Source: a virus (taxonomy: Duplodnaviria > Heunggongvirae > Uroviricota > Caudoviricetes). From it: 64,000 nt of DNA. Location of the stretch: IMG/VR virus record IMGVR_UViG_3300042987_001724. One strand, given 5' to 3'. Under the pieces are notes generated by a model. It did not search any database. It had not been told where the DNA came from and was given only the letters and a program-made list of their open reading frames with translations. Position numbers and translations under genes: made by a program. Positions 6,538 to 39,363 of this stretch are shown one piece after another (position 1 is the stretch's first letter; the number at the start of each line of letters is the position of its first letter).

Positions 6538-6852
6538 ATGATCGAACTGAAGGGGTTGTTTCCAGTGAAAAAGCAAACGAAAAAGGCTGCACCAAAAGCA
6601 GCAAAAAATGGCTGCGGTGGCCTGCTTGATATCGCGAAATCAATTCGCCCCAAAGCTCCAGCAAATTGGCTGGATCTGGTGACTCCGCAACAGCGAGCAG
6701 AAATCATCGAAACCTGCCATGCCATCGTCAACGGAGAAATCGTAGGGAGCATCCGCGCCATCGCTGCCGCATGGAAAGCCCACGGCATTGATTGCAGTCG
6801 TGCGAAACTCACTGACTTGGTCGCCAAGGTCCGCAGGGGAGAGGTCAAGTGA
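6538..6852 (+). CDS. hypothetical basic protein
   Basis: 104-aa ORF, Lys/Ala-rich at the N-terminus, coupled to the downstream gene. Confidence 0.4.
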   Translation: MIELKGLFPVKKQTKKAAPKAAKNGCGGLLDIAKSIRPKAPANWLDLVTPQQRAEIIETCHAIVNGEIVGSIRAIAAAWKAHGIDCSRAKLTDLVAKVRRGEVK

Positions 6853-9092: not shown

Positions 9093-9425
9093 CTACTTTG
9101 CGGGTGTCGCCCGTGCGACTCTTCCGGGGGTTGAGAATACTTCGTGTAAACCACGGGCAGTCTTTAACGCTTCTCTCGTCGTCTTCGCCTCAACCCAGCA
9201 GACATACACCCATTTCCCAGCAGCAGAGCGGACTTCAATGTTAAATCTCGTTTTTCTGTCACCCGATGAAGTTGATTGCGATTCGCTCTGCTTCTCTGCA
9301 AACTCGCCCGGTTTCTTTCCGTCATGCGATTCGTGCTCGCGGGGATGTTTTGATTCGTCGAATGAATTGGAGAATTCGAAGTGGTCGGTAAGAATATCAA
9401 CCGCACGCAGGAATCCGTCTTCCAT
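9093..9425 (-). CDS. small protein carrying the giant-protein N-terminal leader/linker module
   Basis: Begins MEDGFLRAVDILTDHFEFS..KHPREHESHDGKKPGEFAEK. This is the same leader as the giants at 31059 and 35407, and the same HDGK(K/R)PGEFA(P/E)K box. Confidence 0.55.
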   Translation of the reverse strand: MEDGFLRAVDILTDHFEFSNSFDESKHPREHESHDGKKPGEFAEKQSESQSTSSGDRKTRFNIEVRSAAGKWVYVCWVEAKTTREALKTARGLHEVFSTPGRVARATPAK

Positions 9426-14563: not shown

Positions 14564-16489
14564 ATGTCTGCATCGTCACGATTTTCGCCACAGGACTGGG
14601 AGGCCACTTTAGTCGCCTGCCACTACCATCCAAAGCACGTCAAGGAACTGATGAAGCTGAGGGACGACATGCACGACTACGAAATGCACGTCCACCGGCT
14701 AGCAACAGATCCGAACCATAAAGTCCCGGACCCGCCGAACGTGACGATGCGACTCGGGCAGATCATTGGTGATGATGCCATGCGGCAATTCAGCCGCGAC
14801 GACGAATCCCCGCTCGAACTCGCCTGCCGACTCTCTGGGATCGGCCCGGCTGATGTTATCGCGTCTCTACCGTCGGAATTCAGCCGCCAGTTAGACGATA
14901 TCGGCCCCGTTGAATTCGGCCAGAAGTCGTTTGACTGGGACGAGACTGCGGTACACCGGGAAACGTCCGCTCACGACGGGAAAAAGCCCGGCGAATTCGC
15001 ACCAAAGCATGACTTCCCCGCAATCAATGCCGTGAAAGACGAATACAAGTTTCCGGAACGGCTGAATAAGCTGACTGCGATTCTGGATGCACATCAAACC
15101 GGAGATGTCCCGAAGGCTCAGTTCGAAATGGCCAAGAGCCACCTCAACTGGATTAAAGACGCAAAACGCCATTTGCTCGACTGGATGCACGCGGACCGAG
15201 ATGGGGATACTGATGCCGAACACCCACCAATGTCTCCAGCAGAAAGCGAGGCGGTTCGTGAGGCGTATTATGGATTCAACAAGAAGTCCATCAAGGCACT
15301 CGAAAAGCTGAACTCCGACCACCCAGCGGTAAAATACGCTCTCGCTCTGAATGCGGAACTGGACAAACTTGGCTCGCACATCGAATCCATGAAAGACAGG
15401 GTTGTCACGGCGGCACAGCAAAGGGAAGCCAAGAAAGCCGCAGCGGTTCGCGCCGAGAAGTCGAAGCCAGTGACCTCACTTTCGAAGGTTGTTGCCGAGG
15501 CGACTGAAACACTTCGCCCACAAATGACGTCCTTCTTTAAGCGAGTAATGACTGATCGGTTGAGTCTTCTGAATCGCATGGTTGACGAATACAACTCACA
15601 AGAGATTCCAAAGTCCACCGGGATTAGACTCACCAAGGAAGAACGAGACGCAGAGGAGTCCAGAAGCCGAAAATGGAAAAGCATCCAAGTCCTGTTCTCT
15701 GAAGTGCGAAACTGCCTGAGCGCTGACGCATCGGTGATGGAGGGAAACCACAAATTCGACGATGCTCGACTCGAAAGCCAGTCCAACGCATACGCCACGG
15801 GAGTCATCGAAGGGATGAGGTCCAAGATCAACCAAAAGCTGGAGGATCTTGACGACGCCAGCTTTAGGCATGCCAGCGGCGGCGAAAACACATTCGGATT
15901 GCACGGAACTCGCGACGGAAAGAAAGTCGAGATTCAGCAGAGCGTAAAATGGAACGTATCGTCTCTCGGGAACCCATTCAATCAGTATCCGGCCCTGATC
16001 TACGTTGACGGCAAGAGCGTATCTGAGGCGAAGTACAAAAGCATGTTCAGTCAGAAACCTGAACATCCGTCAAGTGAACCGGAGAAGCCAAAAGGCTCTG
16101 CACAGTCATTCATCTCTACCGTGCGGGAAATGGGATACAAAAACCCATTCTCCAATGAGACAGTTGTCGGAAACGCCGCCGTAGAACTGCACGCCAGCCC
16201 GGACGGATCGGTCTGGTTGAAAAGCATTCGGGCACTGACGCCGAAAAAAGGCGACGGCAGCGCAATGCTGAAGCAACTCACGAAACTGGCGGATGAAAAC
16301 GGAGTCGAGATCAAGGGCGAAGCGGTCCCATTCGGCAAGAGCATGAGTGCTGCGAAGCTCAAGAAATGGTACGTCGCCCACGGATTTACGCTGAACGGAG
16401 AAGAGTTTACCTACACGCCAACTCCACGATTGAAGATCGGCAGCGGACCCATGCGATCAATCCCAATCGAACAGCCGGAGCAAGAATAG
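14564..16489 (+). CDS. polyvalent protein 1 (641 aa) with linker module and C-terminal GNAT-like domain
   Basis: Contains RQFSRDD and SEFSRQLDDIGPVEFGQKSFDWDETAVHRETSAHDGKKPGEFAPK (module). C-terminal GNAT motif A-like LKSIRALTPKKGDGSAMLKQL. Ends EEFTYTP plus tail. Confidence 0.8.
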   Translation: MSASSRFSPQDWEATLVACHYHPKHVKELMKLRDDMHDYEMHVHRLATDPNHKVPDPPNVTMRLGQIIGDDAMRQFSRDDESPLELACRLSGIGPADVIASLPSEFSRQLDDIGPVEFGQKSFDWDETAVHRETSAHDGKKPGEFAPKHDFPAINAVKDEYKFPERLNKLTAILDAHQTGDVPKAQFEMAKSHLNWIKDAKRHLLDWMHADRDGDTDAEHPPMSPAESEAVREAYYGFNKKSIKALEKLNSDHPAVKYALALNAELDKLGSHIESMKDRVVTAAQQREAKKAAAVRAEKSKPVTSLSKVVAEATETLRPQMTSFFKRVMTDRLSLLNRMVDEYNSQEIPKSTGIRLTKEERDAEESRSRKWKSIQVLFSEVRNCLSADASVMEGNHKFDDARLESQSNAYATGVIEGMRSKINQKLEDLDDASFRHASGGENTFGLHGTRDGKKVEIQQSVKWNVSSLGNPFNQYPALIYVDGKSVSEAKYKSMFSQKPEHPSSEPEKPKGSAQSFISTVREMGYKNPFSNETVVGNAAVELHASPDGSVWLKSIRALTPKKGDGSAMLKQLTKLADENGVEIKGEAVPFGKSMSAAKLKKWYVAHGFTLNGEEFTYTPTPRLKIGSGPMRSIPIEQPEQE

Positions 16490-16492
16490 CCA

Positions 16493-19400
16493 ATGTCGCT
16501 CGAATCCGACCTGCAAACCGTACTCGGTTCATTTGTGGAAGTTTCCACGCCAATTCCTTTCTCAAGAACCGCCGCACCGGGGCAGAAACGTCTCTGGAAT
16601 GAGGCCGATGTCAGCCGGGAGTCCGAAGCCCATGAGGGGAAGCGCCCCGGCGAGTTCGCCCCGAAGCCACATGAGGGCACTGTTGACATCGGGAACGGAG
16701 TGTCGCTTAAAACTCATCCGCCAAAAACACACGTTATTAGGCCCGGCAACCAGTACGACACCCATTATTGGGAGGCCATAAAAAACGGAGAGACCATCGG
16801 CAGCGGGAGATATGCGAACTACGGAACCGCAACCCAGCCACTGGAGGTATCGGTGAATCCGTCGCATCGCGGTCAGGGAGTTTATTCGTCGGTGTTGGCG
16901 GAACTAAATCGCCGCGCGACTGTAATCCCGAACGACCTAAGCGTAAGCACTGAAGCAAAAAGGGCGTGGAACAGATTTCGAAAACAAACCGGAGAGCAAC
17001 CACAGTTCCCAGAAGCTATGACTCCGCAAGAGAAAAAGTCAAAAACGCCAGCCGGTCAGAATCTCCTGTTCGACTCCGGCGTCAGCGATCAGCCCGTAGC
17101 GAAGCCAGCCCCGCAACCGAGTGAGTTGGAGAAGATTGACGACGAGCAGAAGAAATCGAAGATTGCTCCGGTCGAAGGGCAGAAAGAGCTATTTGAGGGT
17201 GGATTGGAGCCTGTTCATCACCACGTCGCGAAGCGATTCGGGATTCCCCCGCACGCCGTCAAGAGCCTGATGGAATCCGGCGTGCCAGAATTGCGACGCC
17301 GCGACGAGTGGCTAGCTGAGAGTAATGGGGCTTCCCCGCAAACCGGGTTCGAGACATTCCCTCACGGCACAGCACGGATCAACCAATTCGGCGATCCCAA
17401 CGAATCCTACGTTGATTACATGACGGAATTCAGCCCGCACGATATCGAGCCGACGGAACCAGAGGACGGAATCAAGAAAAGCCAGACGTACAAGGATTAC
17501 GTCCAATGGGCGAAGGCGGGCCACCAGCCTCCCCCGGTCAGTGTGTTCAGTAGTAACAATGGCAACGGGAAACTGTTGACCTCAAGCCGCCGCAGAACGC
17601 TGGCCGCACGAGAGGCGGGAGTCGCAAAGATTCCAGCATGGCACGGACCCTATAACCCTGAAACCGGCAACCCGCTGAAATACGGTGACGTGATGAAGGC
17701 CGTAAACGAGTTCCACTCTCAGCAGTTTTCGCGAACGCTCAATGAAGTCACCCCGATAGAGTTCTCTGTCGCTGCTCCGCCACGTAAACGTCGAGTTATC
17801 GACGACAAGCGAACTCGCGAAGATGTTGACGAAGACGAAAAGGTATTCGGCAAGAAAAAACGAATCCCGACCGATGGTAACAAACCAGAAACCGGCTGGA
17901 CGAAAGTCGGTGGCAGCACGGTCCACGTCAACGATGATGGCGTCATCGACAAAGGCTGTCCCGGATTGAAGGGCGAGGAAGTCGAAGACCTGATTGACGA
18001 ATCCGACGAATCCCGCGAACGCCGCGAAGCCCGGCAGGCATACGCTCGCGCCGCTGGCATCACCGGAGATCAGATCACAGCCGAGCAAGCAAAAGCGATG
18101 GGGAGCGATGCTCACGTCGAAGGAATGAAGCAAGCCAAGGCAGTAGCGGAAGCAGATCCACGCCCAACAATCGGCACATCTGACGTTCTCCGTGGAGTGG
18201 ACGACCAGACCGGAGAGCTAGCCGGGAACGGTCACGAGCTTCTGCAATCCAACAATCGTGAGCACCCAGAATCCAACGAGCAATTCGAGGGAACTGGAAT
18301 GCCGTCGCCGATGAAGTTCATGGACGACGAAGACGAAGGCACCCGCCCGCAGTGGATGGGACCGAAGTTGTCGGAGATGGTCCCGATTCCGCCACGACCG
18401 AAATTCCTGCGAGATCGTGAGCCGCTCGACCACGATGCCGCAGCACAGTACCAGCCCCAGATTGACAAACTTGAGGCGGATATCGCCAAATGGCGAGATG
18501 CTCGCGACGCGATGAAAAAAGGCCGCGACGTCGGCCAATTCGGGCTTTCTCCAGAACAGAAAACCCCAGAATACGCCGATGCGCAAATCAAAGCACTGCA
18601 AGGACCGCTGGGGAAACTGAAACGGCAGTTGTCTGACTACCGGATGCGATCAACTCCAAACCAAAATCCAGCAACGCAGACATGGACCTCGCTGGACTCC
18701 GCAGCAGAGGGAGCGTCATCAAAATTCGGAATCCCAATTCACCACATTGTCGAAGCCATGCCGGATGCGTATTTATTCCGGCTGGCGCAGTCGATCGAGC
18801 ATGAATCGCTCAAAAAGGCAGCACGCAAGAAACTGCAAATGCACGCCGGTGATTTGGCAAGAATCGAAAACCAGCATTCCGACTGGTCTGATGTCCCCCG
18901 CTTCGACGAGGCTTCCCGAGAATTCGCGTCAGAAAACCCCGGTGCAGGTCTGGACCCATACGCCCACGATACGCCAGACAAGGTGTGGAGCCTGATCCGT
19001 GAGGGCGCGACGTCGATGCCAGCCAAGGACTCCCCGGAAATCGCAGAGCTTGCCGCACAGATGATTTCTGGCGACTACAATCGGAAGCCGCTGGAGTTCA
19101 CGTCAGAAGATGACCATGACGATCATGGCGACGATTTTTCAGATGACTGGGGAGGAGAACACGGCGACACGTCATTCGATCCGAATTCGTTCAGTCGATG
19201 GATACTCAATGCCGGTCCCGTGGAGTTCGCCCGCGTCAGGCCCGCCCGCAATCAATCTGCGTTCAATTGGGATGAGGATGCCCACCCCCGAGAGGCCACT
19301 GTACACGACGGAAAACGACCGGGAGAGTTTGCCGCAAAGCAGGGAGTCGCCGCGCCGCAGGAGATCGACCACGAATCCGACTACAAGCAGAACGGAACCC

Positions 19401-27052: not shown

Positions 27053-30000
27053 ATGCTTCCTTCAACCGCGTATTTGCTTTCCGACGCTTTTCGGCAGTCC
27101 ATTCAGTTTTCTACGGTGACGCCAGCGGCCCCTCACTCGCCAGTCCAGCACGCGACGATTGACCACAACACATTGAGCCATGCGGAGTTGGCGAACGCAG
27201 TAAAAACAGGCGGTCCGCACCAATTTCATGAATCAGAGCTTCCCAAGATCGGAATGCGGCTACGGAAGTCCGGCCAATTTTCAGCGGCAGACATCGTGGA
27301 TAACCATGCCAAGGCAATTCAGGCCGCGAAACAGCCCCCCGCCGCGCCTGTCGCCCAACGGCCAAATCTCCCCGCCTACGCTGGGGTTCTGTCGCCGAAT
27401 CGCAAAAAAGCCGTCATGGATTTTGTCAATCACGCGAATCCTGACGTTCAAAAGCATGTTGCCGATCATCAGGTCCACGTCCCCGGACTGACGCCCAAAG
27501 AAGCCTACGTGCGAGCACAGAAAGCCTACGACACATTCCATGCCGCGCACATGGGCGTTCCGCTGGCGACTCCTACCGCTTCACAGCCGACGGCAGCGCC
27601 GCAGTCAGCCCAACAATCGCCACCGCAGCCCGGAGTCTCTGCCTCTGCTCCACAACCAGCCGAGGATAAGGGTTCCGATTGGGATCTATGGAAAAACAAG
27701 GGGAGTCGGCCTCCGTTGAGTAGCCAGCAAAGGGCGGCGATTGGTCGGAAAATGGGGCTGACTGTCGGAACGCCAGAGGATGACGCACATCTCCCGAAGA
27801 CTATGCTGAACATCAGAAGTGATTATGCGGCGAACGCGGTAAAGGAGGAGGAGCCGGCGTACCAAAAGCCACTCATAGACCCCTCAAAGTACATTCCAGA
27901 TCGAAATGACCGCCTGCGATTGCGGACAATGGAAGCATGGGCGTTCAAGACTCCAGAGGGAAAAAAGGCTTACGATGAGTCCGGGATTGAAAAACTTGGA
28001 ATGGGGAAGCAACACACAGAGGCATTTCACCAACTTTACGACAAGTATCATTCCGGGCAGCAATCCGCACCCCCAGCGACACAACCAGCGAAGCAAACCC
28101 CGGCAGACGTCGCGAAGATGCACGCCGAAGCCGTCCGCAGTGGTCGCCCGGTCCCACCGCAGTATCTTGATCGCGTTCAGAAAAACCTGCGAGCACACGG
28201 CTACCATGCCGAGGCCGATCAGATCGCCCCGAAACAGGATGACGCGGCCTATGCTGCCGATCAGTTCGGATCGGGAACGATTCCGGCAACAACCGGGATC
28301 ACCGGCGCGGGGATGAAACGTCCCGGAGCACCTGCCCCGCAGAGATCGTTCTTGAATGACGAATCCACTGGCAGTCCAGCTAAATTACCGCCACGCCGCC
28401 CCGCACCAGCAAGCACGCCAGCCGAACAGCTTCCCGCCCCGAAGTTTGGTTACAGCACCCACACCGCACCGGCTGGAGTTGTCCCCGGAGAGCAATCAGA
28501 ACAACAGCCATCAACCCACGGTCGATTCTCCAGACTTCTCGACGCCGCGCGGCAGGGAAAGTTGAAAGAACACGTCGAAGGCGGTTTAGGGAACTTTTTT
28601 GACAAGTTCGAGCGACACGGCGGTAAACTTCTGAAAAAGATCGGCATCGACACCGGCTACAACGAGCAGGAATACAGCCGAGTTTCCGTAGCAATCGCCA
28701 ATCTGAACGATATCGTCCAAGAGTTCGCACGGAAATCCGATCCGAACCAGATGAGCTTATTTGGCGGTGACGAAATCGCACTGGCAACGGCCCCAAAGTC
28801 CAAGACCAGAAATCTGCGAAAGCCCGCCCCCGGTCAGAAGTCGTTCAATTGGGACGAAGATAGCCACCCTCGCGAAAAGGATCATCACGACGGGAAGCGG
28901 CCCGGAGAGTTCGCTCCAAAGGAATCCGGACACACATCAGCCACGAAACAAGAGCCGGAACCTGAAGAATCAGCCGAAAAACCGGAATCGGAACAGAAGC
29001 CGGACACGAAGCGGACATATTCGGCCAAAGGAAACGAGGTCCACGACGCCGACGGTGTCCGCCACGGCGCATTCCGCAACGAAGAAAAAGCGAAAGAGGC
29101 CGCAGAGCGATGGAACCGGGAAGGGAAACCAAACTCGACCCCAGCGGCGAAAGCTGTCGAAGCGACGTTCCCTTCACTGGCGGGATATGTGGAGCCGGAA
29201 TCGCCTCGCGAAGAACTCAAGAAGATTGCCGATGAGCACTTGGCGAGCGAGATTCCACCGGCACAGAATCCAGTTTCGGGACCAAAAGCAACCGACGGAA
29301 CAATTCCCGGACTGGAGCCAGAAAAGCCGAGCGAGACCCCACGGGAAGCCGCTGAACGGCAACAAAAGGCACTGGACGCCGATTACGAATTCGCCCGACA
29401 ATCCGCCGTCCGAAACGCAGGAGAAGACTTGAAAGGATCGGCAAGGCACAAGCGAAACGCTTGGCAAGGGCTTGATGACGCCGAAGAGAACGGAACCGCC
29501 GCAGAATTGGTGACTCGCGACAATTTACTGAAAGCCGAGCCTCACGACCTGATGTCGGCAGCAGATGAAAACCCGCGAACTTCTCTGGCTGGTTATTTCG
29601 CCCTTCGATCTTTTCCCGCAAAACCGGGTTCGACATCGAAACGTGTTCGCATAGACGAAGAGACCGCTAAGAAAGATCGCCGACAGTTCTTGGAGACATA
29701 CAGGCAGTACAAATCGAAGATCGAAGAACTGGCAAAAACAGAGCCAGATCCCGCAAAGGCCATCGCAGAGATTCGTGGCTGGGTTGGTAAAAAAATCAAT
29801 GAATTGCGGGGGATTGAAAAGAACAGGTCAGACTATATGGCCAACGCAGGGTTGATTGGTGACGACAAGTACAACAACACAGCGAATGGATTGGTCGACA
29901 CGTACAAGTCGCTCGGACACAGGAAAACTGGCGTTGCTTCCCGGCTACAAGACTTCGACTTCCTTGCTCGCGAAAAATACGGTTCAGAAAAACCAAGCAC

Positions 30001-31048
30001 AGATGATTTGGCAGAGCACGCCAAGGACATCATTGAAGGCCGGTCAATGCCTGACGCATTTGGCGCGAAGGGGACCAAGAAGTCTCAGTTCAACGCATCA
30101 GATGCGTATGTGAAACACGCCATTCGCAAGGGCGGTCGCGACGTCTCGAAACTGACGAAAAACCCGAACGAAGCCGCCAAGCATATCCTTGAGAAGTTCG
30201 GCGCTCGCGGTGTTCAGTGGGGCAATAGCGTCACCGATGACGAGCGGATGCACCATGCGTCGAAACTGGTTGAGTCCCTTGCTGATCTCGCCGACATGAC
30301 AGGACTGAAGCCAGAGGATCTAAGCCTTGGCGGGAAACTTGGGTGGGCAGTCGGAGCACGCGGCCACGGCACGGCGTCCGCGCACTACGAGCCGGGAACA
30401 CAGGTCATTAACCTAACTCGCAAATCCGGAGTCGGGGCGCTGGCGCACGAGTGGGCGCACGCATTCGATCACTCGCATTCTAACTACAATATCATTAGCG
30501 ACGGCGAAAAACGCATGGGCGATTACGAGTCAGGAAACTGGTATCCGCAGAAGTTTAGCGGCAGCAGTCGGACACCAGTGGATCAAACGAAAAAGCCGCT
30601 ATGGCAGGCATACGAGGCTGTCCGTCAAGCATGGGCAAAAAGCGGATTCGACAAGCGTCTTTCCGCTGCCGTTTCACACCACATCAATGAAGGTCGGATG
30701 TCAAAGGGTAAACGAGACTATTGGCTTTCAAAACACGAGAAATTCGCACGCACTTTCGAGCGGTTCATCCAGCACAAGTTGCGTGAAAACGGCAGAGACA
30801 ACACGTATCTGTCTGGACTGGCATCAATCGAAGGTGAGCACGCATTGTGGCCGAACGACGAGGAAATCAAGGTGATGGCCCCCGCATTCGAGAAGCTGCT
30901 GTCGCACTATCGCAAAGAAAAGTACGGCGACGAAAAACCGCAGGAGTTCAGCCGATCTCAGGCGATTGCGTATTTCTCAGGAAACTCGCTCAGTTCAGCA
31001 GTTGAACGCCTGACAGCTCTTTCGTCCTCACTCCGCAACGCAAGCTGA
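27053..31048 (+). CDS. giant polyvalent protein 3 (1331 aa) with zincin metallopeptidase domain
   Basis: P/A/Q-rich N-terminal ~530 aa. Internal module IVQEFARKSDPNQMSLFGG..PAPGQKSFNWDEDSHPREKDHHDGKRPGEFAPK. HExxH zincin motif LAHEWAHAFDH. Ends KPQEFSRSQAIAYFSG plus tail. Confidence 0.85.
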   Translation: MLPSTAYLLSDAFRQSIQFSTVTPAAPHSPVQHATIDHNTLSHAELANAVKTGGPHQFHESELPKIGMRLRKSGQFSAADIVDNHAKAIQAAKQPPAAPVAQRPNLPAYAGVLSPNRKKAVMDFVNHANPDVQKHVADHQVHVPGLTPKEAYVRAQKAYDTFHAAHMGVPLATPTASQPTAAPQSAQQSPPQPGVSASAPQPAEDKGSDWDLWKNKGSRPPLSSQQRAAIGRKMGLTVGTPEDDAHLPKTMLNIRSDYAANAVKEEEPAYQKPLIDPSKYIPDRNDRLRLRTMEAWAFKTPEGKKAYDESGIEKLGMGKQHTEAFHQLYDKYHSGQQSAPPATQPAKQTPADVAKMHAEAVRSGRPVPPQYLDRVQKNLRAHGYHAEADQIAPKQDDAAYAADQFGSGTIPATTGITGAGMKRPGAPAPQRSFLNDESTGSPAKLPPRRPAPASTPAEQLPAPKFGYSTHTAPAGVVPGEQSEQQPSTHGRFSRLLDAARQGKLKEHVEGGLGNFFDKFERHGGKLLKKIGIDTGYNEQEYSRVSVAIANLNDIVQEFARKSDPNQMSLFGGDEIALATAPKSKTRNLRKPAPGQKSFNWDEDSHPREKDHHDGKRPGEFAPKESGHTSATKQEPEPEESAEKPESEQKPDTKRTYSAKGNEVHDADGVRHGAFRNEEKAKEAAERWNREGKPNSTPAAKAVEATFPSLAGYVEPESPREELKKIADEHLASEIPPAQNPVSGPKATDGTIPGLEPEKPSETPREAAERQQKALDADYEFARQSAVRNAGEDLKGSARHKRNAWQGLDDAEENGTAAELVTRDNLLKAEPHDLMSAADENPRTSLAGYFALRSFPAKPGSTSKRVRIDEETAKKDRRQFLETYRQYKSKIEELAKTEPDPAKAIAEIRGWVGKKINELRGIEKNRSDYMANAGLIGDDKYNNTANGLVDTYKSLGHRKTGVASRLQDFDFLAREKYGSEKPSTDDLAEHAKDIIEGRSMPDAFGAKGTKKSQFNASDAYVKHAIRKGGRDVSKLTKNPNEAAKHILEKFGARGVQWGNSVTDDERMHHASKLVESLADLADMTGLKPEDLSLGGKLGWAVGARGHGTASAHYEPGTQVINLTRKSGVGALAHEWAHAFDHSHSNYNIISDGEKRMGDYESGNWYPQKFSGSSRTPVDQTKKPLWQAYEAVRQAWAKSGFDKRLSAAVSHHINEGRMSKGKRDYWLSKHEKFARTFERFIQHKLRENGRDNTYLSGLASIEGEHALWPNDEEIKVMAPAFEKLLSHYRKEKYGDEKPQEFSRSQAIAYFSGNSLSSAVERLTALSSSLRNAS

Positions 31049-31058
31049 AAGAATCTAT

Positions 31059-34000
31059 ATGGAACCCGGTTTCCTTGCCGCAGTCGATATTCTGGTCAAT
31101 CACTACCTCCCTGAATCCGAGTTCGCCCGCAAGTCGGCACCGAATCAACTTGGATTGTTTGGTGAGGACGAACTTGCCGCAGCCGTGGCCCCGAAGTCTC
31201 GCGCCCGGAATCTGCGAAAACCAGCCAAGGGGCAGATGGCTTTCAATTGGGATGAGGATTCGCACCCCCGAGAGGCGACTGTACACGACGGAAAACGACC
31301 GGGGGAGTTCGCGCCGAAGGAACACGCAGAGGCGGCGAAGGTCGCAGAGATGTACCCGTCCCTGAAAGATGACGTGGAGTCAGAGCCTGATGAGGAACAG
31401 CCGGAACCGGAACCAGTGGCGACTCACGCCGAACCGATCGTTCACAATGGCCATCAGATCGAACCGAAAGTCAGCAAGTCTAGCGACGGCACCGACGAGC
31501 ACTACGCACACTGGAAGAAAAACGGATCATGGGAAGCCGGAGTCACCAACTCGCACGGCAGCAGGGAAGAGGCGATTGAATCCGCGAAAGCGATGATCGA
31601 CGAATCCAATGATTCGAAGCAGCCCGCGAACCCATTCCGCGAAGAAGCCGACAGAATCAGGGCGAAAGCCGATCAGCTTGCGGGTGGAACAGCACACGAC
31701 AAGGCGATGGCATCGGCCTTCATTCTCGGCACCGGACGCCCCGGAAACGCATCGTCACAGCGAACAAGCCGACAGGCTGAGAAACGCATCGACGCAAGTA
31801 TCGACCGGGCATTGAAGGCCACCGAACTGTACGGTAAGGCGAAGTCAGTGGAGGCAAAAGCGGCAGCATTCGACAATGGGCAGATTGACGCCAACGGGAA
31901 TCCAACAGAGAAAGCCGTGGCGGCAAGTGAAGCCCGAAAGACCGCAGCGGACGGAGCAAAGCAGCAAATTGCCGACTACTTGAAGGGAACACTGAAGCCG
32001 GGAGACCTGATCGACATCGGCGGGAATGGTCCGGTTGCAGTGCAGAAGGTCAATAAAACGACGGTGACATCCGAAGGTGGATCGAAGTGGAAGTTCGACG
32101 ACATCACTCCTACGGAAAACGGAAAGCCAATTTCAAGATCCGAGTTTGCGAAGCGAGTCAACGCATTCCACGCCAGCAATGATCAGCCCGCAACTGAGGC
32201 CGCACCGAATCCGATCACAGAGCAATTCCCGTCCCTAAAGGGATTCACAGAAGAACCGAAGCCAGCGGAAGCACCCGCCGAAACCAAAAGCGTCTGGCAG
32301 CTTCCTTCGGAACAGTTCGATGCGATGCTTGAAAAGCAAGCGAATGGTAAAGCACCAGAGGACTCCGGCCCACTCACGCTAGCAAAACTCGACGAACGCA
32401 AGGAGCGCATCAACACCGGGAAAGCAACAGCCGACGAAGTTCGGCAGTGGCACAAGGAACTCAGCGACCCCGCCAATATCGAGGCCATAAAGGCGGAATT
32501 CAACAAGCAGTCCGTCGCCGAATTGAAGTCGAAGGGCGGGACTGGGTACTACAACCGACAAAAGAAAGCCGATCTGATCGAGTCAATCATGGATCACATC
32601 GGCGACGAATACGACGTATCCCCCGGAGGGCTGTCGTATGTGATGAGTCCGGGCGGGAGTTTAATGAAGTCCAAGCAGGCCGCACTTCAGAAAAAACTCG
32701 CCGGATTGACTGACCAGCACATTGCCGATCACGCCGCGAAATTGTCCGGCGCAGTGGCAAAAAGAGAGGAAGCAAGCGAAGCGGTCCAAGAGGGAATCAA
32801 GAATCCACAGACGCTCGACGACTTCCGAAACGCGGTTCGCCATTATGGCGGTTATGCGAACATGCCGGAAGATATCCAAGTGGCGTTTGATGAGTTCGCT
32901 GCGAACCGACGGCGAGAGACTGCCGCACAGTCGAAAGCGAAAGTCACCGGGTTCAGCGGCGGCACCGAAGCCACTGGCGCAACCTCAATCGTCGAAGGTC
33001 ATCACCAGAAGAAAAACGCCCCAACCTACACCGTCACCGTTGAAAAGCATTTGGGCGATGGGTGGGGTGACGCACTGAGTCGAGCACGTCAACTCGGCGG
33101 AAGCTACGTCAATGGGTGGACAGCCAAGGCATACAAGGCAACGCCCGGCTTCCAATTCTTCAATCGGGCTGATGCGGAGAAGTTCCAAAAGTCGCTTGGC
33201 GGTGAGGAAGTAGACCGATCCGACCGTCTGGACGAAAAGAACATCGCCCGGATGGATAACGCATCGGAACGACTGGCCGCACTGTCCGAAGCCACGAAGA
33301 AACGTGCCGAAGAGAAGTTAAACGCACCGCGACAGACGAACACGCACCGCCGCGCCGAACACGCCGCAGGAGCACAGGCACAGGCCCGGTCCGAAGCAGC
33401 CAAGGCGGAAACCATGCAGCGGATCTCCGAAGGGCTGTCATCCGGATCGTTGAAGCATCTCGGCGGAATCCGCGCCAGAACCCACGTTGATACGCTCGAT
33501 TCTCTTCTGCACAACGCGAAGCTGAATGCGTGGCGAGACTCGAAATCGACGTCACAGGATTCCTACGAAGAAATGCGGGAACGTGACGCCACTTCGCAGG
33601 ATATCGCCAAGGCGAAATATCCGTACCCAAGGATTTGGGATCACGAACTCGCCGAACACCTCGACGAGTTATCGCAGATTCCCGGACTGAAGAACATCGC
33701 TCGCGACCTGAAGAGGTCTACAGAGAAATCCCCGTACAAAAAGAAGATCGGCAAGATTTCCATCAATGGCGGTGAAGCCAAGACGGCGGACCAATTGGCA
33801 GATATCCCGCTGGCCCGAGGACTCGTTAAAGACAAGGCTGTCCGAATCCACGTCTCCCAAGATCCGACACTACTGAAGGGACGACACCCAGTCGCCTACA
33901 CAGCCGACGGCGGGAAGACTTGGGGCACGACTCAGGACATCGCCGTTAGCGCAGCCGTTCACGGAGAAATCAACGGGACCAGCAAGCTCGACCTGATCGA

Positions 34001-34850
34001 CCCACCGCAGCACGAACAGGTGGAAATCAAAGATCCGGACACCATCGCCAGCATCCAAAAGGCGATCAAGATCCTGAAAAGGAAGTCAAACCCACGATTG
34101 AAACGTGTCGCGGAATCACTCGGCCAGCACATGGAGGATTACAACCGACTCCAAGGGATGGATATCACGACGCCGATGGAACTTCGGGCCGCACTCCGCG
34201 AATACGCACCGCTCAAGAAGCGACAGGACAAGGAAGACCCGGTAAAGGCCAAGGAAAGATCGTTGGTCGGTCGCAAAATAGACGGCTTTTTCCCGACACC
34301 ACGCCCGGCGATCGACAAGATGCTGGCCGCAGCAGACATCCAGCCCGGAATGAGCGTATTGGAGCCGTCCGCAGGCAAGGGCGATATCCTTGATGCAGTG
34401 AAGGAACAGCACCCCGACGCCAAGACCATCGGGATCGAAACGAATTCGGATCTCCGCGACCTCATCGGCATGAAAGGCCACGAGTTACACGACGACACCG
34501 ACTTCCTTCAGCACAACGGCCAATACGATCGAATCGTAATGAATCCACCTTTTGAAAATCGTCAGGACGCGACGCATGTTCAGCACGCTTTCAAGAACCT
34601 CAAGCCGGGAGGCAGGCTGGTAGCCATCATGGGGGCAGGCGTGTTCGGTGGCAGCAGCAAAAAGGATCAGGAGTTCCGGGACTGGCTCGACGAGCACGGC
34701 GGGGAAGTCGAAGACATGCCGGAAGGTTCATTCAACGGGGCCGACGCATTCCGCAAAACCGGCGTCAACACCCGCATGGTAGTGATTGACAAACCACACG
34801 ATACCAAACAGTTCAGCCGGGATCTCGCCTTCGTCCTTTCTCGCATTTGA
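31059..34850 (+). CDS. giant polyvalent protein 4 (1263 aa) with C-terminal N6-adenine DNA methyltransferase domain
   Basis: N-terminal leader MEPGFLAAVDILVNHYLPESEFARKSAPNQLGLFGED..KGQMAFNWDEDSHPREATVHDGKRPGEFAPK. MTase motif I VLEPSAGKGDIL and motif IV NPPF (DRIVMNPPFEN). C-terminal KQFSRDLAFVLSRI. Confidence 0.9.
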   Translation: MEPGFLAAVDILVNHYLPESEFARKSAPNQLGLFGEDELAAAVAPKSRARNLRKPAKGQMAFNWDEDSHPREATVHDGKRPGEFAPKEHAEAAKVAEMYPSLKDDVESEPDEEQPEPEPVATHAEPIVHNGHQIEPKVSKSSDGTDEHYAHWKKNGSWEAGVTNSHGSREEAIESAKAMIDESNDSKQPANPFREEADRIRAKADQLAGGTAHDKAMASAFILGTGRPGNASSQRTSRQAEKRIDASIDRALKATELYGKAKSVEAKAAAFDNGQIDANGNPTEKAVAASEARKTAADGAKQQIADYLKGTLKPGDLIDIGGNGPVAVQKVNKTTVTSEGGSKWKFDDITPTENGKPISRSEFAKRVNAFHASNDQPATEAAPNPITEQFPSLKGFTEEPKPAEAPAETKSVWQLPSEQFDAMLEKQANGKAPEDSGPLTLAKLDERKERINTGKATADEVRQWHKELSDPANIEAIKAEFNKQSVAELKSKGGTGYYNRQKKADLIESIMDHIGDEYDVSPGGLSYVMSPGGSLMKSKQAALQKKLAGLTDQHIADHAAKLSGAVAKREEASEAVQEGIKNPQTLDDFRNAVRHYGGYANMPEDIQVAFDEFAANRRRETAAQSKAKVTGFSGGTEATGATSIVEGHHQKKNAPTYTVTVEKHLGDGWGDALSRARQLGGSYVNGWTAKAYKATPGFQFFNRADAEKFQKSLGGEEVDRSDRLDEKNIARMDNASERLAALSEATKKRAEEKLNAPRQTNTHRRAEHAAGAQAQARSEAAKAETMQRISEGLSSGSLKHLGGIRARTHVDTLDSLLHNAKLNAWRDSKSTSQDSYEEMRERDATSQDIAKAKYPYPRIWDHELAEHLDELSQIPGLKNIARDLKRSTEKSPYKKKIGKISINGGEAKTADQLADIPLARGLVKDKAVRIHVSQDPTLLKGRHPVAYTADGGKTWGTTQDIAVSAAVHGEINGTSKLDLIDPPQHEQVEIKDPDTIASIQKAIKILKRKSNPRLKRVAESLGQHMEDYNRLQGMDITTPMELRAALREYAPLKKRQDKEDPVKAKERSLVGRKIDGFFPTPRPAIDKMLAAADIQPGMSVLEPSAGKGDILDAVKEQHPDAKTIGIETNSDLRDLIGMKGHELHDDTDFLQHNGQYDRIVMNPPFENRQDATHVQHAFKNLKPGGRLVAIMGAGVFGGSSKKDQEFRDWLDEHGGEVEDMPEGSFNGADAFRKTGVNTRMVVIDKPHDTKQFSRDLAFVLSRI
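31241..31318 (+). repeat. about 78-nt direct repeat, copy B
   Basis: Near-identical to 19262..19340. Both encode the WDED-HPRE-HDGKRPGEF box. Confidence 0.8.
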
Positions 34851-35406: not shown

Positions 35407-38400
35407 ATGCCGGAACCCGGATTTCTTCGCGCAGTGGAAGTATTGACCGACGCCCTGTTGACCCCGCAGGAGTTTGCACGGCACAAGCCATCTCCAGACC
35501 AAATGACGCTCCGTTGGGTGACGATTCACCCACATGGCGAAGGTGAAGAAAGTCGAAGAATCCAGATCAACACCGAAACCGGCGAAATCGAGAAGGGTTT
35601 CGGGGCTGGAAAAACCATGCACGAAGCCTTTTCACCGAAGAGTGAAACGCTTGCCACAAGTGAAACACAGTCCAGCACTCCGGGGCGCAAATGGTATGGG
35701 ATGACGTATCGACCACCAGCATTGGGCGCGATCCCCAAAGGTGAGTATGAGCACAAGCCGCACCCTGATTTCCGGCACGGACAGATCTCCTACAATGAGC
35801 CACTCAGTCAGGAGATGCAGGACGCCTATGAGCTTACGCCAATCCATGAGGACGGGGATATTCCGGCTGTCGCGAAGTCTGTTGGCGCTGCGATGGGGAA
35901 GTATGCTGGCGAATACGCCAAGCCGCAAAACGCACAGCTTCTCGACGACCAACTGTCTCTAGAACGCATCCGCAAACTTCTCGGTCACGTTGACAAGGAG
36001 AAACTGAAAGCGGAGTTCCGGAAACAGTTCGGACAGGAATCCGATGCGGACCGCATTGAATCGGAGGCGTCATCTATCGCGGATGGCGTGCAAAAGCAAA
36101 AACAGCGATCAATGATTTATCAGGCGGACGACAAGGAGCGACTTGCAGAAAAGCACGGAAAGCCGCTCGACGCATATCACGATCTCCCGTTTGATGATTG
36201 GATGAAACTTCGTGCGGCTGATGACGAATCAGGTCGGGAACCGCAAAAGCCAGACGACGCCATCCTGAGCAAATATCCATCCCTTGCCGAACCACCGAAA
36301 CAAGCCGAAATGAGCGAGATGGTCCGCGCCGCCGCTGGCTATCAACTCCACGGAATGAGGAATGAACCAGAAGACCGCGCGGCATGGCGAGAACATTCAC
36401 AGCACATGACGAAATCCGCACTCGACGGATGGCTGATGAAGAAGTTCGGGATCGATTCCGCCACCGCCCGAGCCGTCAGCAACGCCGCTGGTGATATGAA
36501 CCCATTCACAACCGAAGGAGCGGGGACCGTTGGAGGGCAGGGCGTCAAATGGAATCACGACAGCCCGGAACCGACGATGGAGGAACTTGGTGACATGCCT
36601 TGGCTGAAGTCGGACGCGGCAGCAGAGAACTCAATCCAGCACAATCGCGAATCGCTATCGTCGATGCGTTCCGGGATGAAAGCGAAGATTGCCGAACTTG
36701 AGGCCAAGGAGGCGTCGGAAACTAAGCGACTGACGGCGGAAAAATCCCGAGCAAAGGGGGCGGAGAAAAAGGACGCGATTGACGATCAGTGGCGAGCCAT
36801 GAAGGACGACTTGTCAAAGCAGCGACAGGCTGTGATGCAGTCTCACCTGAAGGAAATCGAGTCGCATCCCGAGTATCAGCAGGAAAAGGCGGAGTCGTCA
36901 AGAAAAGCCAAGGGAAGGCAGGACGCATCTCAGGCGGAAGACAAGGCGAGAGCCAGCGACGCTGATAAAGCGAACTGGGACCACATTCAGAGCAACGGAG
37001 GCTACGAAGCCGTTCGCGACAGTCTTACCGCAGACATCAAAAGTCTGAAAAGTCGACTTGCTAAAACCAAGGACGCGAATAAATGGAAACTGGAAAGCAA
37101 TCTCGCCAATCGGGAGCGTGACCTTGAGCGAGTGAATGCACTGAATGAGAAATACGGGTCGAAACAGCCAGCCGTCCCACCGGAGATAGCCGCAAAGTAC
37201 CCATCATTGGCGGAAGACGTTGGCGCAAAACCAGAGGCAGCAAAAGAGCCGTGGGAGATGACACGAGACGAGTTCATGCGACAATCGGCAGCGAAACCAG
37301 CGTCGGGCGGATTTGCTGCGAGAGCAAACGCGAAGATTGCCAAGCCGTACCATCGACAATTGGTCACTCAGGCCGTCGCTGATGGGAAGTCGGTTCCGCC
37401 AGAAGTTCTCGCCGATTATCCAGAATTGTCGGGCGATCCAGAGAAGTCTGGTCAAGTCTCGTCAAGTCCGGAGAAGTCCGCAGACGAGCGGAAACCATTC
37501 AAGCCCGAAGGCGTCCCCGGCGAGCAAATGGGGTTGTTCGATCAGGACGCAGGCGGACAGAAATCTCTGTTCAATGTTGTCAAACCCGACAAGAAATCGA
37601 AAAAGGCACCAGCCGCCGCGCCGTCCGAACTGGAAAAGATCAGAGACGAGCACAATGCGAGGTCCGAAGAATCCGCACCGCTACCGGGGCAGAAGTCTAT
37701 CAGGGGTTTAGCAACAAAGCCGAAAAACACCGCAGAGGCTGATGAAAAGATCGCGTCTCAAAAAATGGCCTCCGACTTTCTTCAGGAGTCCAGAGATGAA
37801 AAAGAACAAGCGAAAAGAAAAGAGCGAGTGAGTCAATGGAGAAGCGGCTTCACTGGATCTCCAAAGGAGAATAACGCATCCGGAGATATCGCTCGCCACG
37901 ACTGGGAAAAGGCACTGCAAAACGGAGTATCCCCAAAACGACTTTCCGAGATGGTCGATAGTGCCGTTCAGGCTGGCGCTCTCGACGCTGGCGTTGGAAA
38001 GCATCTAAAGTCTCGGTTTTCTATCGAAGATCAGTACCCGAGCCTGAAGGGGTTCTCGGATCACCAAAATCTCAAGCCCATGTACGCCCCAAGCGACGAA
38101 AAGACCAAGGCGGGCGAGGAGTACCGCACCGCACTTGCCGGAGCCGGTAAATTCCACGCATCCAGAGTTGCGGCAGCGGAAGCAGGCGTTAAGGCTGGTC
38201 ACACACTCGACGAAATGCTGCAAGACCTGAAGGACGAAGGCGTCCACGAATTCGACGCGAAGCGGATCATCGGAGACGCATTCAACAAGGCCGGAAAGCC
38301 AGTAACTCGAAGCGACCAGCCGAAGCCGAGGCCATCCGACGATGACTGGAAACCAGAGAACCACGTCAAGATCGCAGCGGATGACATCAGCAAACTACGA

Positions 38401-39363
38401 AAGCAAGACGTTCACCGACTCATGGAGAACGCCACGGGCGACCGCCGCGCCAAGATGGCCGACTACATCCGGCAGAACCGCCCAGAACTCGCAGGAGAGG
38501 TTCAGGACTCGCTTGACGACTTGGGTGGAGATTCATCCGCATCTAAGGACTCCCCGTCTGTGTACGAGATTCGAGTGAAAGGCCAAGACGGAAACCCGAC
38601 AACTAAACATGCTGTGGCAATGCGAGGTAAGCCGGGTTTTGGAGATAGCGTATTTAACTCGCGAGAGGAAGCCGAATCTCACATCAAAAAGACGGGCGAG
38701 ATAAACAGACTTAATGCTGAATATCAGGCTAAACAAGACGTGATTCGTAAAACGGAACAGGAAAAGGAACACGCCGAAAAGACGGAGCGTGAAAGCATCG
38801 ACGGGTTTGCCAACGACAGGTCACCAAGAGACAAGGCCAATATCATCAAGACACTGAATGCGAAAGCGTCATTCGATGGTAAGGTTATGTCGGTTAAAGA
38901 TAAAGTAAGGGATCTTGTCGCGAATGGAGAATCGCTGTCGGCTGACGAGGAAAACAAAATCAAGCCTATGACGCGAACTCAATTCAACAGGGCGGATGGT
39001 CGCGAACAGGACGCCCACGAAAAAAGAATGCGTGAAGGCGGCAAGAAAACCGTGTATCGCATTGGCGGGTATGATCTCGGGAAGACTGCATACGACTACG
39101 CCAAGCATCTGCTCTCGCAAGGAAAGAAAGAGTTCTCCCGCCGCGCACCACACGAAGAACTAATCCATCATCTCCACGAAGCAATGAACCACGACGGAAA
39201 ATGCTGCTACGAAAAAGAGGAAGGGGAAGACGACATCGCGGATCACGTTCCAGCCGATCACCGCCACATGGACAAATCCGTCCACGAACTCTGCCGACAT
39301 CTCGGAGCATCGCACCCGGAATTGCAGGCGGCATACGAAAACTACACCGCCGCAGTAGAATAG
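35407..39363 (+). CDS. giant polyvalent protein 5 (1318 aa), mostly charged/coiled-coil
   Basis: N-terminal leader MPEPGFLRAVEVLTDALLTPQEFARHKPSPDQM. Internal LFDQDAGGQKSLFN..KKAPAAAPSELEKIRDE box shared with protein 2. C-terminal KKEFSRRAPHEE plus Cys/His-rich tail. Confidence 0.85.
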   Translation: MPEPGFLRAVEVLTDALLTPQEFARHKPSPDQMTLRWVTIHPHGEGEESRRIQINTETGEIEKGFGAGKTMHEAFSPKSETLATSETQSSTPGRKWYGMTYRPPALGAIPKGEYEHKPHPDFRHGQISYNEPLSQEMQDAYELTPIHEDGDIPAVAKSVGAAMGKYAGEYAKPQNAQLLDDQLSLERIRKLLGHVDKEKLKAEFRKQFGQESDADRIESEASSIADGVQKQKQRSMIYQADDKERLAEKHGKPLDAYHDLPFDDWMKLRAADDESGREPQKPDDAILSKYPSLAEPPKQAEMSEMVRAAAGYQLHGMRNEPEDRAAWREHSQHMTKSALDGWLMKKFGIDSATARAVSNAAGDMNPFTTEGAGTVGGQGVKWNHDSPEPTMEELGDMPWLKSDAAAENSIQHNRESLSSMRSGMKAKIAELEAKEASETKRLTAEKSRAKGAEKKDAIDDQWRAMKDDLSKQRQAVMQSHLKEIESHPEYQQEKAESSRKAKGRQDASQAEDKARASDADKANWDHIQSNGGYEAVRDSLTADIKSLKSRLAKTKDANKWKLESNLANRERDLERVNALNEKYGSKQPAVPPEIAAKYPSLAEDVGAKPEAAKEPWEMTRDEFMRQSAAKPASGGFAARANAKIAKPYHRQLVTQAVADGKSVPPEVLADYPELSGDPEKSGQVSSSPEKSADERKPFKPEGVPGEQMGLFDQDAGGQKSLFNVVKPDKKSKKAPAAAPSELEKIRDEHNARSEESAPLPGQKSIRGLATKPKNTAEADEKIASQKMASDFLQESRDEKEQAKRKERVSQWRSGFTGSPKENNASGDIARHDWEKALQNGVSPKRLSEMVDSAVQAGALDAGVGKHLKSRFSIEDQYPSLKGFSDHQNLKPMYAPSDEKTKAGEEYRTALAGAGKFHASRVAAAEAGVKAGHTLDEMLQDLKDEGVHEFDAKRIIGDAFNKAGKPVTRSDQPKPRPSDDDWKPENHVKIAADDISKLRKQDVHRLMENATGDRRAKMADYIRQNRPELAGEVQDSLDDLGGDSSASKDSPSVYEIRVKGQDGNPTTKHAVAMRGKPGFGDSVFNSREEAESHIKKTGEINRLNAEYQAKQDVIRKTEQEKEHAEKTERESIDGFANDRSPRDKANIIKTLNAKASFDGKVMSVKDKVRDLVANGESLSADEENKIKPMTRTQFNRADGREQDAHEKRMREGGKKTVYRIGGYDLGKTAYDYAKHLLSQGKKEFSRRAPHEELIHHLHEAMNHDGKCCYEKEEGEDDIADHVPADHRHMDKSVHELCRHLGASHPELQAAYENYTAAVE

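Follow-up and report, generated by a model that had tools for sequence, protein, structure and literature searches.

A repeated linker peptide in the polyvalent proteins of an uncultured tailed phage, with signs of gene conversion between two of its copies

The repeat and the peptide that it encodes

Why do two different giant genes of one phage share a short stretch of nearly identical DNA when the sequence around it has diverged to the level of chance? The case comes from a 64,000-nucleotide stretch of DNA, hereafter the window, whose source is a novel, uncultured tailed phage. A preliminary description reported that positions 19262-19340 and 31241-31318 are about 90% identical, that a weaker copy lies at ~28841-28920, and that the flanking sequence is far more diverged, and our comparison bears out all three points. 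The two strong copies, B2 and D (Table 1), are identical at 72/81 nt (89%) in an ungapped alignment at an offset of 11980, a match with a chance expectation of ~1e-21 anywhere in the 64-kb self-comparison. In the same register, 100-nt blocks on both sides of the pair show only the 22-34% identity expected by chance. The weaker copy, C, is 72% identical to B2 and 70% identical to D.

The repeat is therefore real, but the two genes and one weaker copy first described do not account for all of it. Combining a repeat search with a six-frame motif scan, we found seven motif copies in the window, all of them in frame and distributed across six ORFs, with the located copies falling in ORF A, ORF B (three copies), ORF C, ORF D, and ORF S2. 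The copies encode a motif of ~27 aa with the consensus F-[ND]-W-[DN]-E-x-x-H-P-R-E-x-x-x-H-[DE]-G-K-[KR]-P-G-E-F-A-x-K, in which 12 residues are invariant across the seven.

Table 1. Positions of the motif copies, the ORFs that carry them or their leader, and associated elements in the window
Feature	Position	Strand	Description
Trypsin_2 serine peptidase gene	3449-4459	+	Kept in relatives L026 and L030
ORF S2	9093-9425	-	110 aa: N-terminal leader (MEDGFLRAVDIL...), motif, small C-terminal domain
Motif copy S2	9291-9371	-	ORF S2 aa 19-45 (SNSFDESKHPREHESHDGKKPGEFAEK)
ORF A	14564-16489	+	641 aa, motif-bearing
Motif copy A	14927-15007	+	ORF A aa 122-148 (SFDWDETAVHRETSAHDGKKPGEFAPK)
ORF B	16493-25192	+	2899 aa polyvalent protein, three motif copies
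Motif copy B1	16586-16666	+	ORF B aa 32-58, near N-terminus (KRLWNEADVSRESEAHEGKRPGEFAPK)
SFSR...PVEFAR linker element	19187-19234	+	Just upstream of copy B2
Motif copy B2	19259-19339	+	ORF B aa 923-949 (AFNWDEDAHPREATVHDGKRPGEFAAK); flagged in the preliminary description
Motif copy B3	20849-20929	+	ORF B aa 1453-1479 (MSLFDEGNVNRETEAHEGKRPGEFAPK)
ORF C	27053-31048	+	1331 aa polyvalent protein, one motif copy
Upstream linker element of ORF C	28721-28777	+	EFARKSDPNQMSLFGGDE; paralogous to the element of ORF D
Motif copy C	28841-28921	+	ORF C aa 597-623 (SFNWDEDSHPREKDHHDGKRPGEFAPK); the weaker copy
ORF D	31059-34850	+	1263 aa, N-terminal leader and motif cassette
Upstream linker element of ORF D	31119-31175	+	EFARKSAPNQLGLFGEDE
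Motif copy D	31239-31319	+	ORF D aa 61-87 (AFNWDEDSHPREATVHDGKRPGEFAPK); flagged in the preliminary description
ORF E	35407-39363	+	1318 aa, same N-terminal leader as ORFs D and S2

Synonymous codons agree no more often than chance in 20/21 copy pairs, and so the repeat is maintained at the peptide level. Agreement of copy C with B2 and with D is likewise at chance level only, and because synonymous sites are saturated, copy C and the other non-flagged copies are explained by peptide constraint alone. These codon patterns indicate that the 78-81-nt repeat is the code for a conserved short linker peptide, kept by selection on the peptide. What had been described as an island of DNA identity thus owes its likeness mainly to selection on a peptide that is also present in many other phages.

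The motif-bearing proteins and their relatives

The motif-bearing ORFs encode polyvalent proteins, i.e. large multi-effector polypeptides. As in the class described by Iyer, Burroughs, Anand, de Souza, and Aravind in 2017 (PMC5512222), the window's giants carry ART-PolyVal, LPD1, methyltransferase, zincin-like peptidase, and DarA-related domains; they combine two or more effector or enzymatic domains in a large polypeptide, bear the signature domains of the class (LPD families, ART-PolyVal, DarA/DarB-related, metallopeptidase), and belong to a phage whose terminase and portal packaging system is represented by terminase and capsid genes, the portal being unrecognised by profile. In ORF B the best-scoring stretch of the ART-PolyVal match spans aa 1014-1068, and copy B2 lies ~30 aa upstream of this module. 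ORF C has a zincin-like HEWAH at aa 1132, inside a CLCA_X-like region (aa 1040-1281), and LPD1 at aa 1219-1288, while the C-terminus of ORF D is a SAM-dependent methyltransferase. The matches to PF18760 (50.2 bits) and PF18796 (46.3 bits) both exceed their cut-offs; the DarA_C (PF18789) match in ORF E is weak, at 26.2 bits just under the cut-off of 27. No known domain was matched in ORF A.

Several of these proteins share more than the motif. ORFs D, E, and S2 have a common N-terminal leader, and ORFs C and D have a common cassette of ~100 aa that includes their upstream linker elements. ORF E retains an EFAR...Q-x-x-L-x-W element and lacks the HPRE...PGEF half. No curated family in Pfam, NCBIfam, PDB, or Rfam matches over the motif, PHROG matches to the window's ORFs fall outside it, no PDB chain carries it, and its AF2 model is poor (pLDDT 42.7). 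The globular-domain catalogue in the main text of PMC5512222 mentions no linker, inter-domain motif, or H-P-R motif; what our analysis adds to that catalogue is a punctuation motif that is repeated, sits as a prefix, and has been homogenised within a genome.

The motif extends well beyond the window. A widespread short form, W-D-E-x-K-H-P-R-G-x-x-G-x-F, occurs between successive domains of giant phage proteins, and the window's motif is a long-loop form of it (HPR, a 10-residue loop, G-x-F); loop lengths are bimodal, at 3 or 10 residues, and homologous modules have either form at the same position. In a search of 1.84 billion representatives, 96 protein clusters matched at E<=1e-3, with as many as 18 copies in one protein and 14 in another. 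The first copy lies <=60 aa from the N-terminus in 40/105 proteins, and the last copy <=60 aa from the C-terminus in 7/105; copies lie a median of 343 aa apart. The usual position is ahead of a module, followed by ~30-40 disorder-prone residues.

The motif is kept across contigs assigned to different phyla. In contigs other than the window it adjoins sigma factor, InPase, and Acb1-like domains, and the giant genes P0062 and P0018 adjoin a capsid gene. It also occurs C-terminal to Mu-type portal domains and N-terminal to a Phage_Mu_F domain, which recalls the MuF/SPP1 gp7-type head proteins and Mu-type portals: in contigs L001, L006, and L023 it lies between a Portal_Mu anchor and downstream effector domains, and in L002 it is N-terminal to the Phage_Mu_F domain of a protein with a C-terminal arginine-deiminase-like domain. 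In contrast, no MuF or portal domain was detectable in the window's own motif-bearing proteins. The window encodes TerL (terminase large subunit), a lambda E type major capsid protein, and a decoration protein; no profile recognised a portal in the window, and no canonical prohead protease was recognised in the head module.

Conversion between two copies and module exchange at linkers

The sole pair of 21 with an excess of synonymous identity is the flagged one: B2 and D agree at 25/27 residues and at 19/24 codons, where 10.2 were expected (p = 3e-4). We compared both window copies over 81 nt with their orthologues in related contigs, a comparison of six sequences in which quartet-informative sites are few. 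The window copies differ from each other at 9 positions, while window B2 differs from its own orthologues at 20-22 and window D from its own at 10; the B2 orthologues differ from the D orthologues at 24-27. At 19 sites that separate ancestral B2 from ancestral D, window B2 has the D state at 8 and window D has the B2 state at 4, and three sites have window-only states that B2 and D have in common and no relative carries. The tract has sharp edges. These results indicate that B2 and D were homogenised by patchy, apparently two-way gene conversion after the split from the sequenced relatives, and their near-identical DNA would be due to homogenisation of this ~80-nt tract. The earlier suggestion that such islands are substrates for gene conversion or domain shuffling therefore finds a conversion signature in the pair for which it was made.

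The pattern resembles ectopic (non-allelic) gene conversion in that the window paralogues are closer to each other than to their orthologues and in that excess synonymous identity, a short sharp-edged tract, and mixed donor states occur together. It differs in the extreme shortness of the tract (~80 nt), in that the two phage genes involved are otherwise unrelated, and in the apparently two-way direction.

Chimeric junctions at module boundaries in related genomes had been proposed as a check on recombination, and in ORFs A and B the modules gained or lost among relatives do have their breakpoints at or next to linker motifs. Relative L026 lacks the module right after copy A (ORF A aa 150-508), a module has been inserted or deleted at the SFSR...PVEFAR element upstream of B2 when compared with P0098/L028, and direct repeats that share an identical core of 15 nt flank one insertion. 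Homology ends are enriched 2.5-3 times near motifs, although some of this enrichment would arise in any case, since alignments can be expected to run on as far as a conserved motif. Since all copies are codon-aligned, recombination between any two gives an in-frame chimera, and we infer that the linkers are natural junctions for module exchange. The nucleotide identity of the motif may drive domain shuffling, or the motif may merely mark boundaries where recombinants stay viable. Recombination-driven shuffling is thus upheld in part: the positions of module gains and losses agree with it, but copies other than B2 and D need peptide constraint only.

Proposed role and alternative readings

In phage T4, the internal proteins and Alt carry capsid-targeting propeptides that are cleaved by the prohead protease; a short N-terminal peptide common to unrelated cargo, including an ADP-ribosyltransferase, directs that cargo into the head and is removed by the phage protease. 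The N-terminal leader and motif on ORFs D, E, and S2 look analogous. However, the sequences are unrelated, and the motif described here is also found internally and in up to 18 copies per protein.

By this analogy, the motif might tag each module for recognition in capsid packaging, proteolytic release, or both, a tentative reading to which we give slightly less than an even chance. On this reading the phage's own head machinery would recognise the tag, which would send cargo modules into the capsid, show a phage peptidase where to free individual effectors, or do both. Portal-fused proteins need no packaging tag and N-terminal copies need no separator, so neither a tag-only nor a cleavage-site-only version fits every case. 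The Trypsin_2 peptidase, whose gene lies outside the head module region, is a candidate processing enzyme, linked to the motif only by co-occurrence in close relatives. The account as a whole, comprising the peptide motif, B2/D conversion, and a per-module tag, we consider probable.

Polyvalent proteins have been predicted to accompany the DNA through packaging and delivery, and to be processed by an embedded metallopeptidase (PMC5512222), and one of them, gp47, was detected in phi24B virions (bioRxiv 10.64898/2026.04.10.717836). By analogy with gp47 and with portal and MuF fusions elsewhere, we predict that the virion contains the window's proteins and carries them into the host. Such proteins are thought to be a main phage route for delivering anti-defence and take-over enzymes, and how proteins so huge are packaged, cut, and ejected has been posed explicitly as a question (bioRxiv 10.64898/2026.04.10.717836). 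A conserved peptide before each module offers a concrete handle, as it predicts protein termini in virion mass spectrometry, points to residues for mutation and to a short peptide that might carry a reporter into a capsid, and lets annotators split giant ORFs into modules. At nucleotide resolution, it also gives a view of modules being gained, lost, and homogenised at linker motifs.

A more speculative extension, which we think somewhat unlikely, is that the H-P-R...G-x-F, EFSR/PVEFAR, and G-Q-x-x-L-F elements together form an unrecognised 'module prefix' code of tailed-phage polyproteins, a cis-acting cargo tag by which the head machinery would govern both the capsid loading and the site-specific release of each effector, with the copies also acting as in-frame recombination joints for effector swaps. 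If true, tailed phages would be using polyproteins in a manner comparable to eukaryotic RNA viruses.

Instead of being read by the phage assembly machinery, the motif could act once injected, by docking every effector module onto a conserved protein of the host, such as the beta sliding clamp. One tag per module fits a need of each freed effector individually, and G-Q-x-[SA]-[FL]-x-[WF], the N-terminal half of the linker cassette, resembles the clamp-binding consensus QL[SD]LF; ORFs B-E also contain eight solitary Q-x-x-L-F pentapeptides (e.g. QMSLF and QLGLF) against ~1 expected, as estimated from residue frequencies. The flagged HPRE...PGEF core, however, does not match the clamp consensus, and the motif persists across contigs of different phyla, whereas host surfaces would differ. 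To our knowledge, no host-binding motif corresponds to the invariant half, H-P-R...G-x-F. Host docking is decidedly unlikely on this balance.

Less likely still is a mere structural spacer, a small turn or cap that insulates domains and has no partner, with the B2-D identity being retained ancestry. The motif does lie within disorder-prone linkers, but 12 invariant residues despite saturated synonymous sites amount to far more constraint than a spacer needs, and the N-terminal bias of the motif is strong. As for ancestry, the similarity of B2 and D is partly forced by their identical residues, and the density of differences in motif versus flank was not significant in Fisher tests on 81 nt and six sequences (p = 0.08 and 0.36); on the other side, window B2 is nearer to window D than to its own orthologues, and the window-only states common to the two also count against retained ancestry.

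An element that works at the DNA or RNA level (a structured RNA, a site for a recombinase, or the template and variable repeats of a diversity-generating retroelement) would fit a sharp-edged repeat of ~80 nt that two genes carry in the same orientation. It is nevertheless very improbable: all copies are in frame with synonymous positions saturated in 20/21 pairs, and comparison of the whole window with Rfam gave no match. The nine B2-D mismatches are G/T, G/T, C/G, C/G, A/G, T/C, C/G, G/C, and A/G; adenine is involved in only 2/9, which is not the pattern of a diversity-generating retroelement pair. Finally, a collapsed or chimeric repeat in the assembly, which had been named as the finding that would explain the identity away, is effectively excluded: B2 and D have 9 differences between them and each lies in its own intact reading frame, orthologous motif copies exist in four related contigs, and JGI and Logan assemblies, made independently, contain the same proteins, with the exact ORF B protein in two contigs (a Logan assembly of SRR35181308, the cluster also being recorded from a 115,069-nt JGI contig) and the exact ORF D protein in three.

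A repeated linker peptide in the large genes

The preliminary description had reported a near-identical DNA repeat in two giant genes together with a weaker copy. The pair, the middle copy of ORF B (B2) and the copy of ORF D, aligns ungapped at an offset of 11980 with 72 of 81 bases identical, a match of a quality expected ~1e-21 times by chance in a 64-kb self-comparison. The edges of the tract are sharp, since adjacent 100-nt blocks in the same register are only 22-34% identical. The number of copies had been underestimated: a repeat search and a six-frame scan located seven. Assembly collapse, raised as a possible explanation, was ruled out by the recovery of the exact ORF B and ORF D proteins from independent assemblies. 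A diversity-generating retroelement and an RNA element were also considered as the nature of the repeat and rejected.

All copies lie in frame within ORFs and encode a motif of ~27 aa, F-[ND]-W-[DN]-E-x-x-H-P-R-E-x-x-x-H-[DE]-G-K-[KR]-P-G-E-F-A-x-K, with 12 residues invariant across copies. The carriers are ORFs A-D and S2, a small ORF on the opposite strand. ORF B contains ART-PolyVal, ORF C contains LPD1 and a zincin-like CLCA_X region with HEWAH, and ORF D contains a SAM-dependent methyltransferase, while ORF E, a further large gene, matches DarA_C weakly. By the definition of Iyer et al. 2017 (PMC5512222), the ORFs that bear the motif encode polyvalent proteins. In kind the repeat is ordinary: it codes for a conserved linker motif of a known class, the polyvalent proteins. 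The more interesting result is the un-annotated punctuation motif behind it, which gives an experimental handle on the processing and packaging of such proteins.

The HEWAH zincin signature (ORF C aa 1132-1136) lies beside LPD1, and this region is probably the embedded metallopeptidase predicted for polyvalent proteins. At their N-termini ORFs D, E and S2 have a leader in common, M-(P)-E-[PD]-G-F-L-[RA]-A-V-[DE]-[IV]-L with EF[AS][RN] after it; small proteins of other contigs begin with this leader too (P0032, P0048 and a 198-aa ORF of L009). ORFs B-E also hold eight Q-x-x-L-F pentapeptides (QMSLF, QLGLF, QNLLF, QKELF, QSSLF, QMGLF, QKSLF), usually with P-x-x-G in front, where a residue-frequency estimate gives ~1.

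Positions of the features discussed
Feature	Position	Strand	Remark
Motif copies	14927, 16586, 20849 (starts)	+
Motif copy B2	19259-19339	+	ORF B
Motif copy, ORF C	28841-28921	+	weaker copy
Motif copy, ORF D	31239-31319	+
Motif copy, S2	9291-9371	-
ORF A	14564-16489
ORF B	16493-25192		2899 aa, three copies
ORF C	27053-31048
ORF D	31059-34850
S2	9093-9425	-	110 aa
Leader, ORF D	31059-31120
Leader, ORF E	35407-35480
Leader, S2	9370-9425	-
HEWAH signature	30446-30460		within CLCA_X-like region
Q-x-x-L-F (examples)	28745-28759, 31146-31160
Divergent stretch of ORF D	31423-32802		aa ~122-580
61-nt match within it	32209-32269
HNH gene	1779-2639		third HNH gene
Trypsin_2 peptidase	3449-4459
Exonuclease gene	6849-7889
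GIY-YIG + NUMOD3 gene	7879-8664	+
SSB-like gene	8648-9088		146 aa
HNH gene	25207-26190	-	between ORFs B and C
Terminase large subunit	50243-51913

Constraint on the peptide and probable conversion of one copy pair

To separate constraint on the peptide from constraint on the DNA, codons were compared in 21 copy pairs, counting positions with the same residue and asking what share used the identical codon; codon usage across the window's genes supplied the expectation. Codon identity was at the chance rate in 20 of the 21 pairs; the motif is therefore old and maintained on the peptide. Peptide constraint alone suffices to account for the likeness of the ORF C copy. The flagged pair alone exceeds chance: of 24 codons, 10.2 would be expected to be identical and 19 are (p = 3e-4). 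Both of its members carry A-T-V at an otherwise variable tripeptide.

We compared this pair with its orthologues, which for B2 lie in related contigs L028 (encoding P0098) and L030 (P0097) and for the ORF D copy in L030 (P0097) and L014 (contig CAYRPN010000126.1). Over 81 nt, the two window copies differ from each other at 9 positions, whereas B2 differs from its own orthologues at 20-22, the ORF D copy from its orthologues at 10, and the two sets of orthologues from each other at 24-27. Nineteen sites consistently split B2 from D orthologues; at 8 of these the window's B2 shows the D state, and at 4 the window's D copy shows the B2 state. Three further sites have a state shared by the two window copies and absent from every relative. 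The flanks of the ORF D copy are ~95% identical to the orthologous flanks, and the cassette upstream has its paralogue in ORF C, not ORF B. The simplest reading is patchy, two-way conversion between B2 and D within this lineage. A local conversion event in the flagged pair is well supported, in a tract of only 81 nt with few quartet-informative sites and a difference density not significantly different between motif and flanks, and the comparison indicates that this copy pair has been recently homogenised.

Just past its motif, ORF D contains a stretch almost without nucleotide match to CAYRPN010000126.1, the sole exception being 61 nt, between flanks that both have ~88-90% nucleotide identity to that contig. 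The divergence sets in at an acidic, proline-rich linker ~100 nt 3' of the motif.

Module exchange at the linkers

When motif-bearing proteins are compared with each other, 12.9% of internal homology ends are no more than 20 aa from a motif, 2.8 times the 4.6% found for random positions; some of this enrichment is to be expected, since alignments tend to run on as far as a conserved motif. In the close relatives of ORF B, modules are gained or lost at breaks at aa 58, 899-914, 1330, 1446, 1491, ~2200 and ~2610, all of them in or next to the motif and its neighbouring elements EFSR and PVEFAR. A relative of ORF A in L026 lacks aa 150-508, and the gap begins immediately past P-G-E-F-A-P-K. Near aa 765-1000 of its gene, P0098 of L028 has a ~195-aa module additional to the window's ORF B. 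On either side of it stand direct repeats that encode SFSR...P[IV]EF and have an identical core of 15 nt, TCGTTCAGCCGGTCG. In the window, left flank, core and right flank are joined at this site, the signature of recombination across the repeat. These observations support in outline the earlier proposal of recombination-driven domain shuffling; nucleotide identity may drive the exchange, or selection may simply keep recombinants broken at domain boundaries.

The motif family, its position and its host phages

In a search of 1.84 billion representative proteins, a 34-position profile built from the seven copies matched 96 clusters at E<=1e-3, whose proteins are mostly 600-7334 aa long and often multi-copy; a 65-column profile with wide flanks found nothing at E<=1e-3 among 5.8 billion proteins. 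The loop between H-P-R and G-x-F has 3 residues in 75 of 149 strict instances and 10, as in the window, in 44. Homologous modules may carry either form at the equivalent position, and one relative's protein contains both. The short form, F-S-x-x-W-D-E-x-K-H-P-R-G-E-H-G-[KR]-[FW], stands between successive domains of giant proteins, with 14 copies in a 5313-aa and 18 in a 7334-aa protein encoded by adjacent genes beside a capsid gene. These two genes, rich in ART domains, directly precede the capsid gene, which is of the Phage_cap_E type; their contig of 410 kb (L034; GCA_040384245.1, JAWVHA010000049.1) is probably a prophage.

No entry covering the motif was found in Pfam, NCBIfam or the PDB, where no chain carries it, and no family in PHROGs. 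It is not described by Iyer et al. 2017, the papers searched on polyvalent and MuF proteins yielded nothing on it, and a full-text search for 'KHPR' in phage papers returned noise only. The 'PLxRFG domain', an NCBI name on one relative, is an unrelated C-terminal domain. Dolichospermum phage Dfl-JY45 and Pseudomonas phage F116, both cultured, were rejected as models: their homologous ART modules retain the ...FSR domain end and lack the H-P-R motif. An AF2 model of ORF B aa 895-1345 (7-sequence alignment) reached a pLDDT of 42.7 and allowed no structural conclusion.

Longer proteins carry more copies (Spearman 0.54), and neighbouring copies are a median of 343 aa apart, roughly the length of a module. 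Of 105 proteins, 40 have their first copy no more than 60 aa from the N-terminus and only 7 have their last copy equally near the C-terminus. Disorder-prone residues are enriched in the 30-40 positions following the motif. In other phages the motif separates Mu-type portal domains from the effector domains that follow them, in one protein it is N-terminal to a Phage_Mu_F domain, and it directly precedes sigma-factor, InPase, Acb1-like and ART modules. From this pattern, the motif behaves as a prefix to the cargo modules of proteins that are connected with the phage head.

We infer that the phage's own machinery may recognise the motif, which would lead to loading of cargo into the capsid and/or release of individual effectors by a peptidase; candidate releasing enzymes are the zincin-like domain of ORF C (aa ~1040-1290) and the Trypsin_2 peptidase, whose gene relatives also have. 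One copy per module, the N-terminal leader common to unrelated cargo proteins, and the need to cut portal-fused effectors free before they can leave the capsid all favour this reading. Its simplest versions fare less well, as portal fusions require no packaging tag and N-terminal copies separate nothing. A rival is docking of the motif onto a host hub, for which it can be said that the Q-x-x-L-F elements, by their sequence, resemble beta-clamp-binding motifs. The last rival is an inert spacer. What the analysis has shown is a selected, conserved peptide that precedes the modules of polyvalent proteins associated with the head.

The window comes from a novel tailed phage and also encodes a decoration protein and a major capsid protein of the lambda-E type. 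The capsid protein is at 59962-61119 and a candidate portal at 57593-59023. Among cultured phages it has no close relative (terminase <=31% identical), and neither tblastn of the motif nor megablast of the 25-kb region gave a match there. Related contigs come from metagenomes and MAGs; the assignment is chiefly to Planctomycetota (Phycisphaeraceae, Pirellulaceae, Gemmataceae), and for one contig each to Acidobacteriota and Chlamydiota.

Besides an HNH gene near the start of the window, two endonuclease genes have the appearance of insertions. The HNH gene between ORFs B and C looks like a mobile homing-endonuclease island; it is missing at the orthologous place in CAYRPN010000126.1 (~180 nt there against ~1.3 kb), and L026 and L027 have a different minus-strand HTH gene at this place. 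The GIY-YIG gene, between the exonuclease and SSB-like genes, is probably a homing-endonuclease insertion as well, because in L030 these two neighbours abut.
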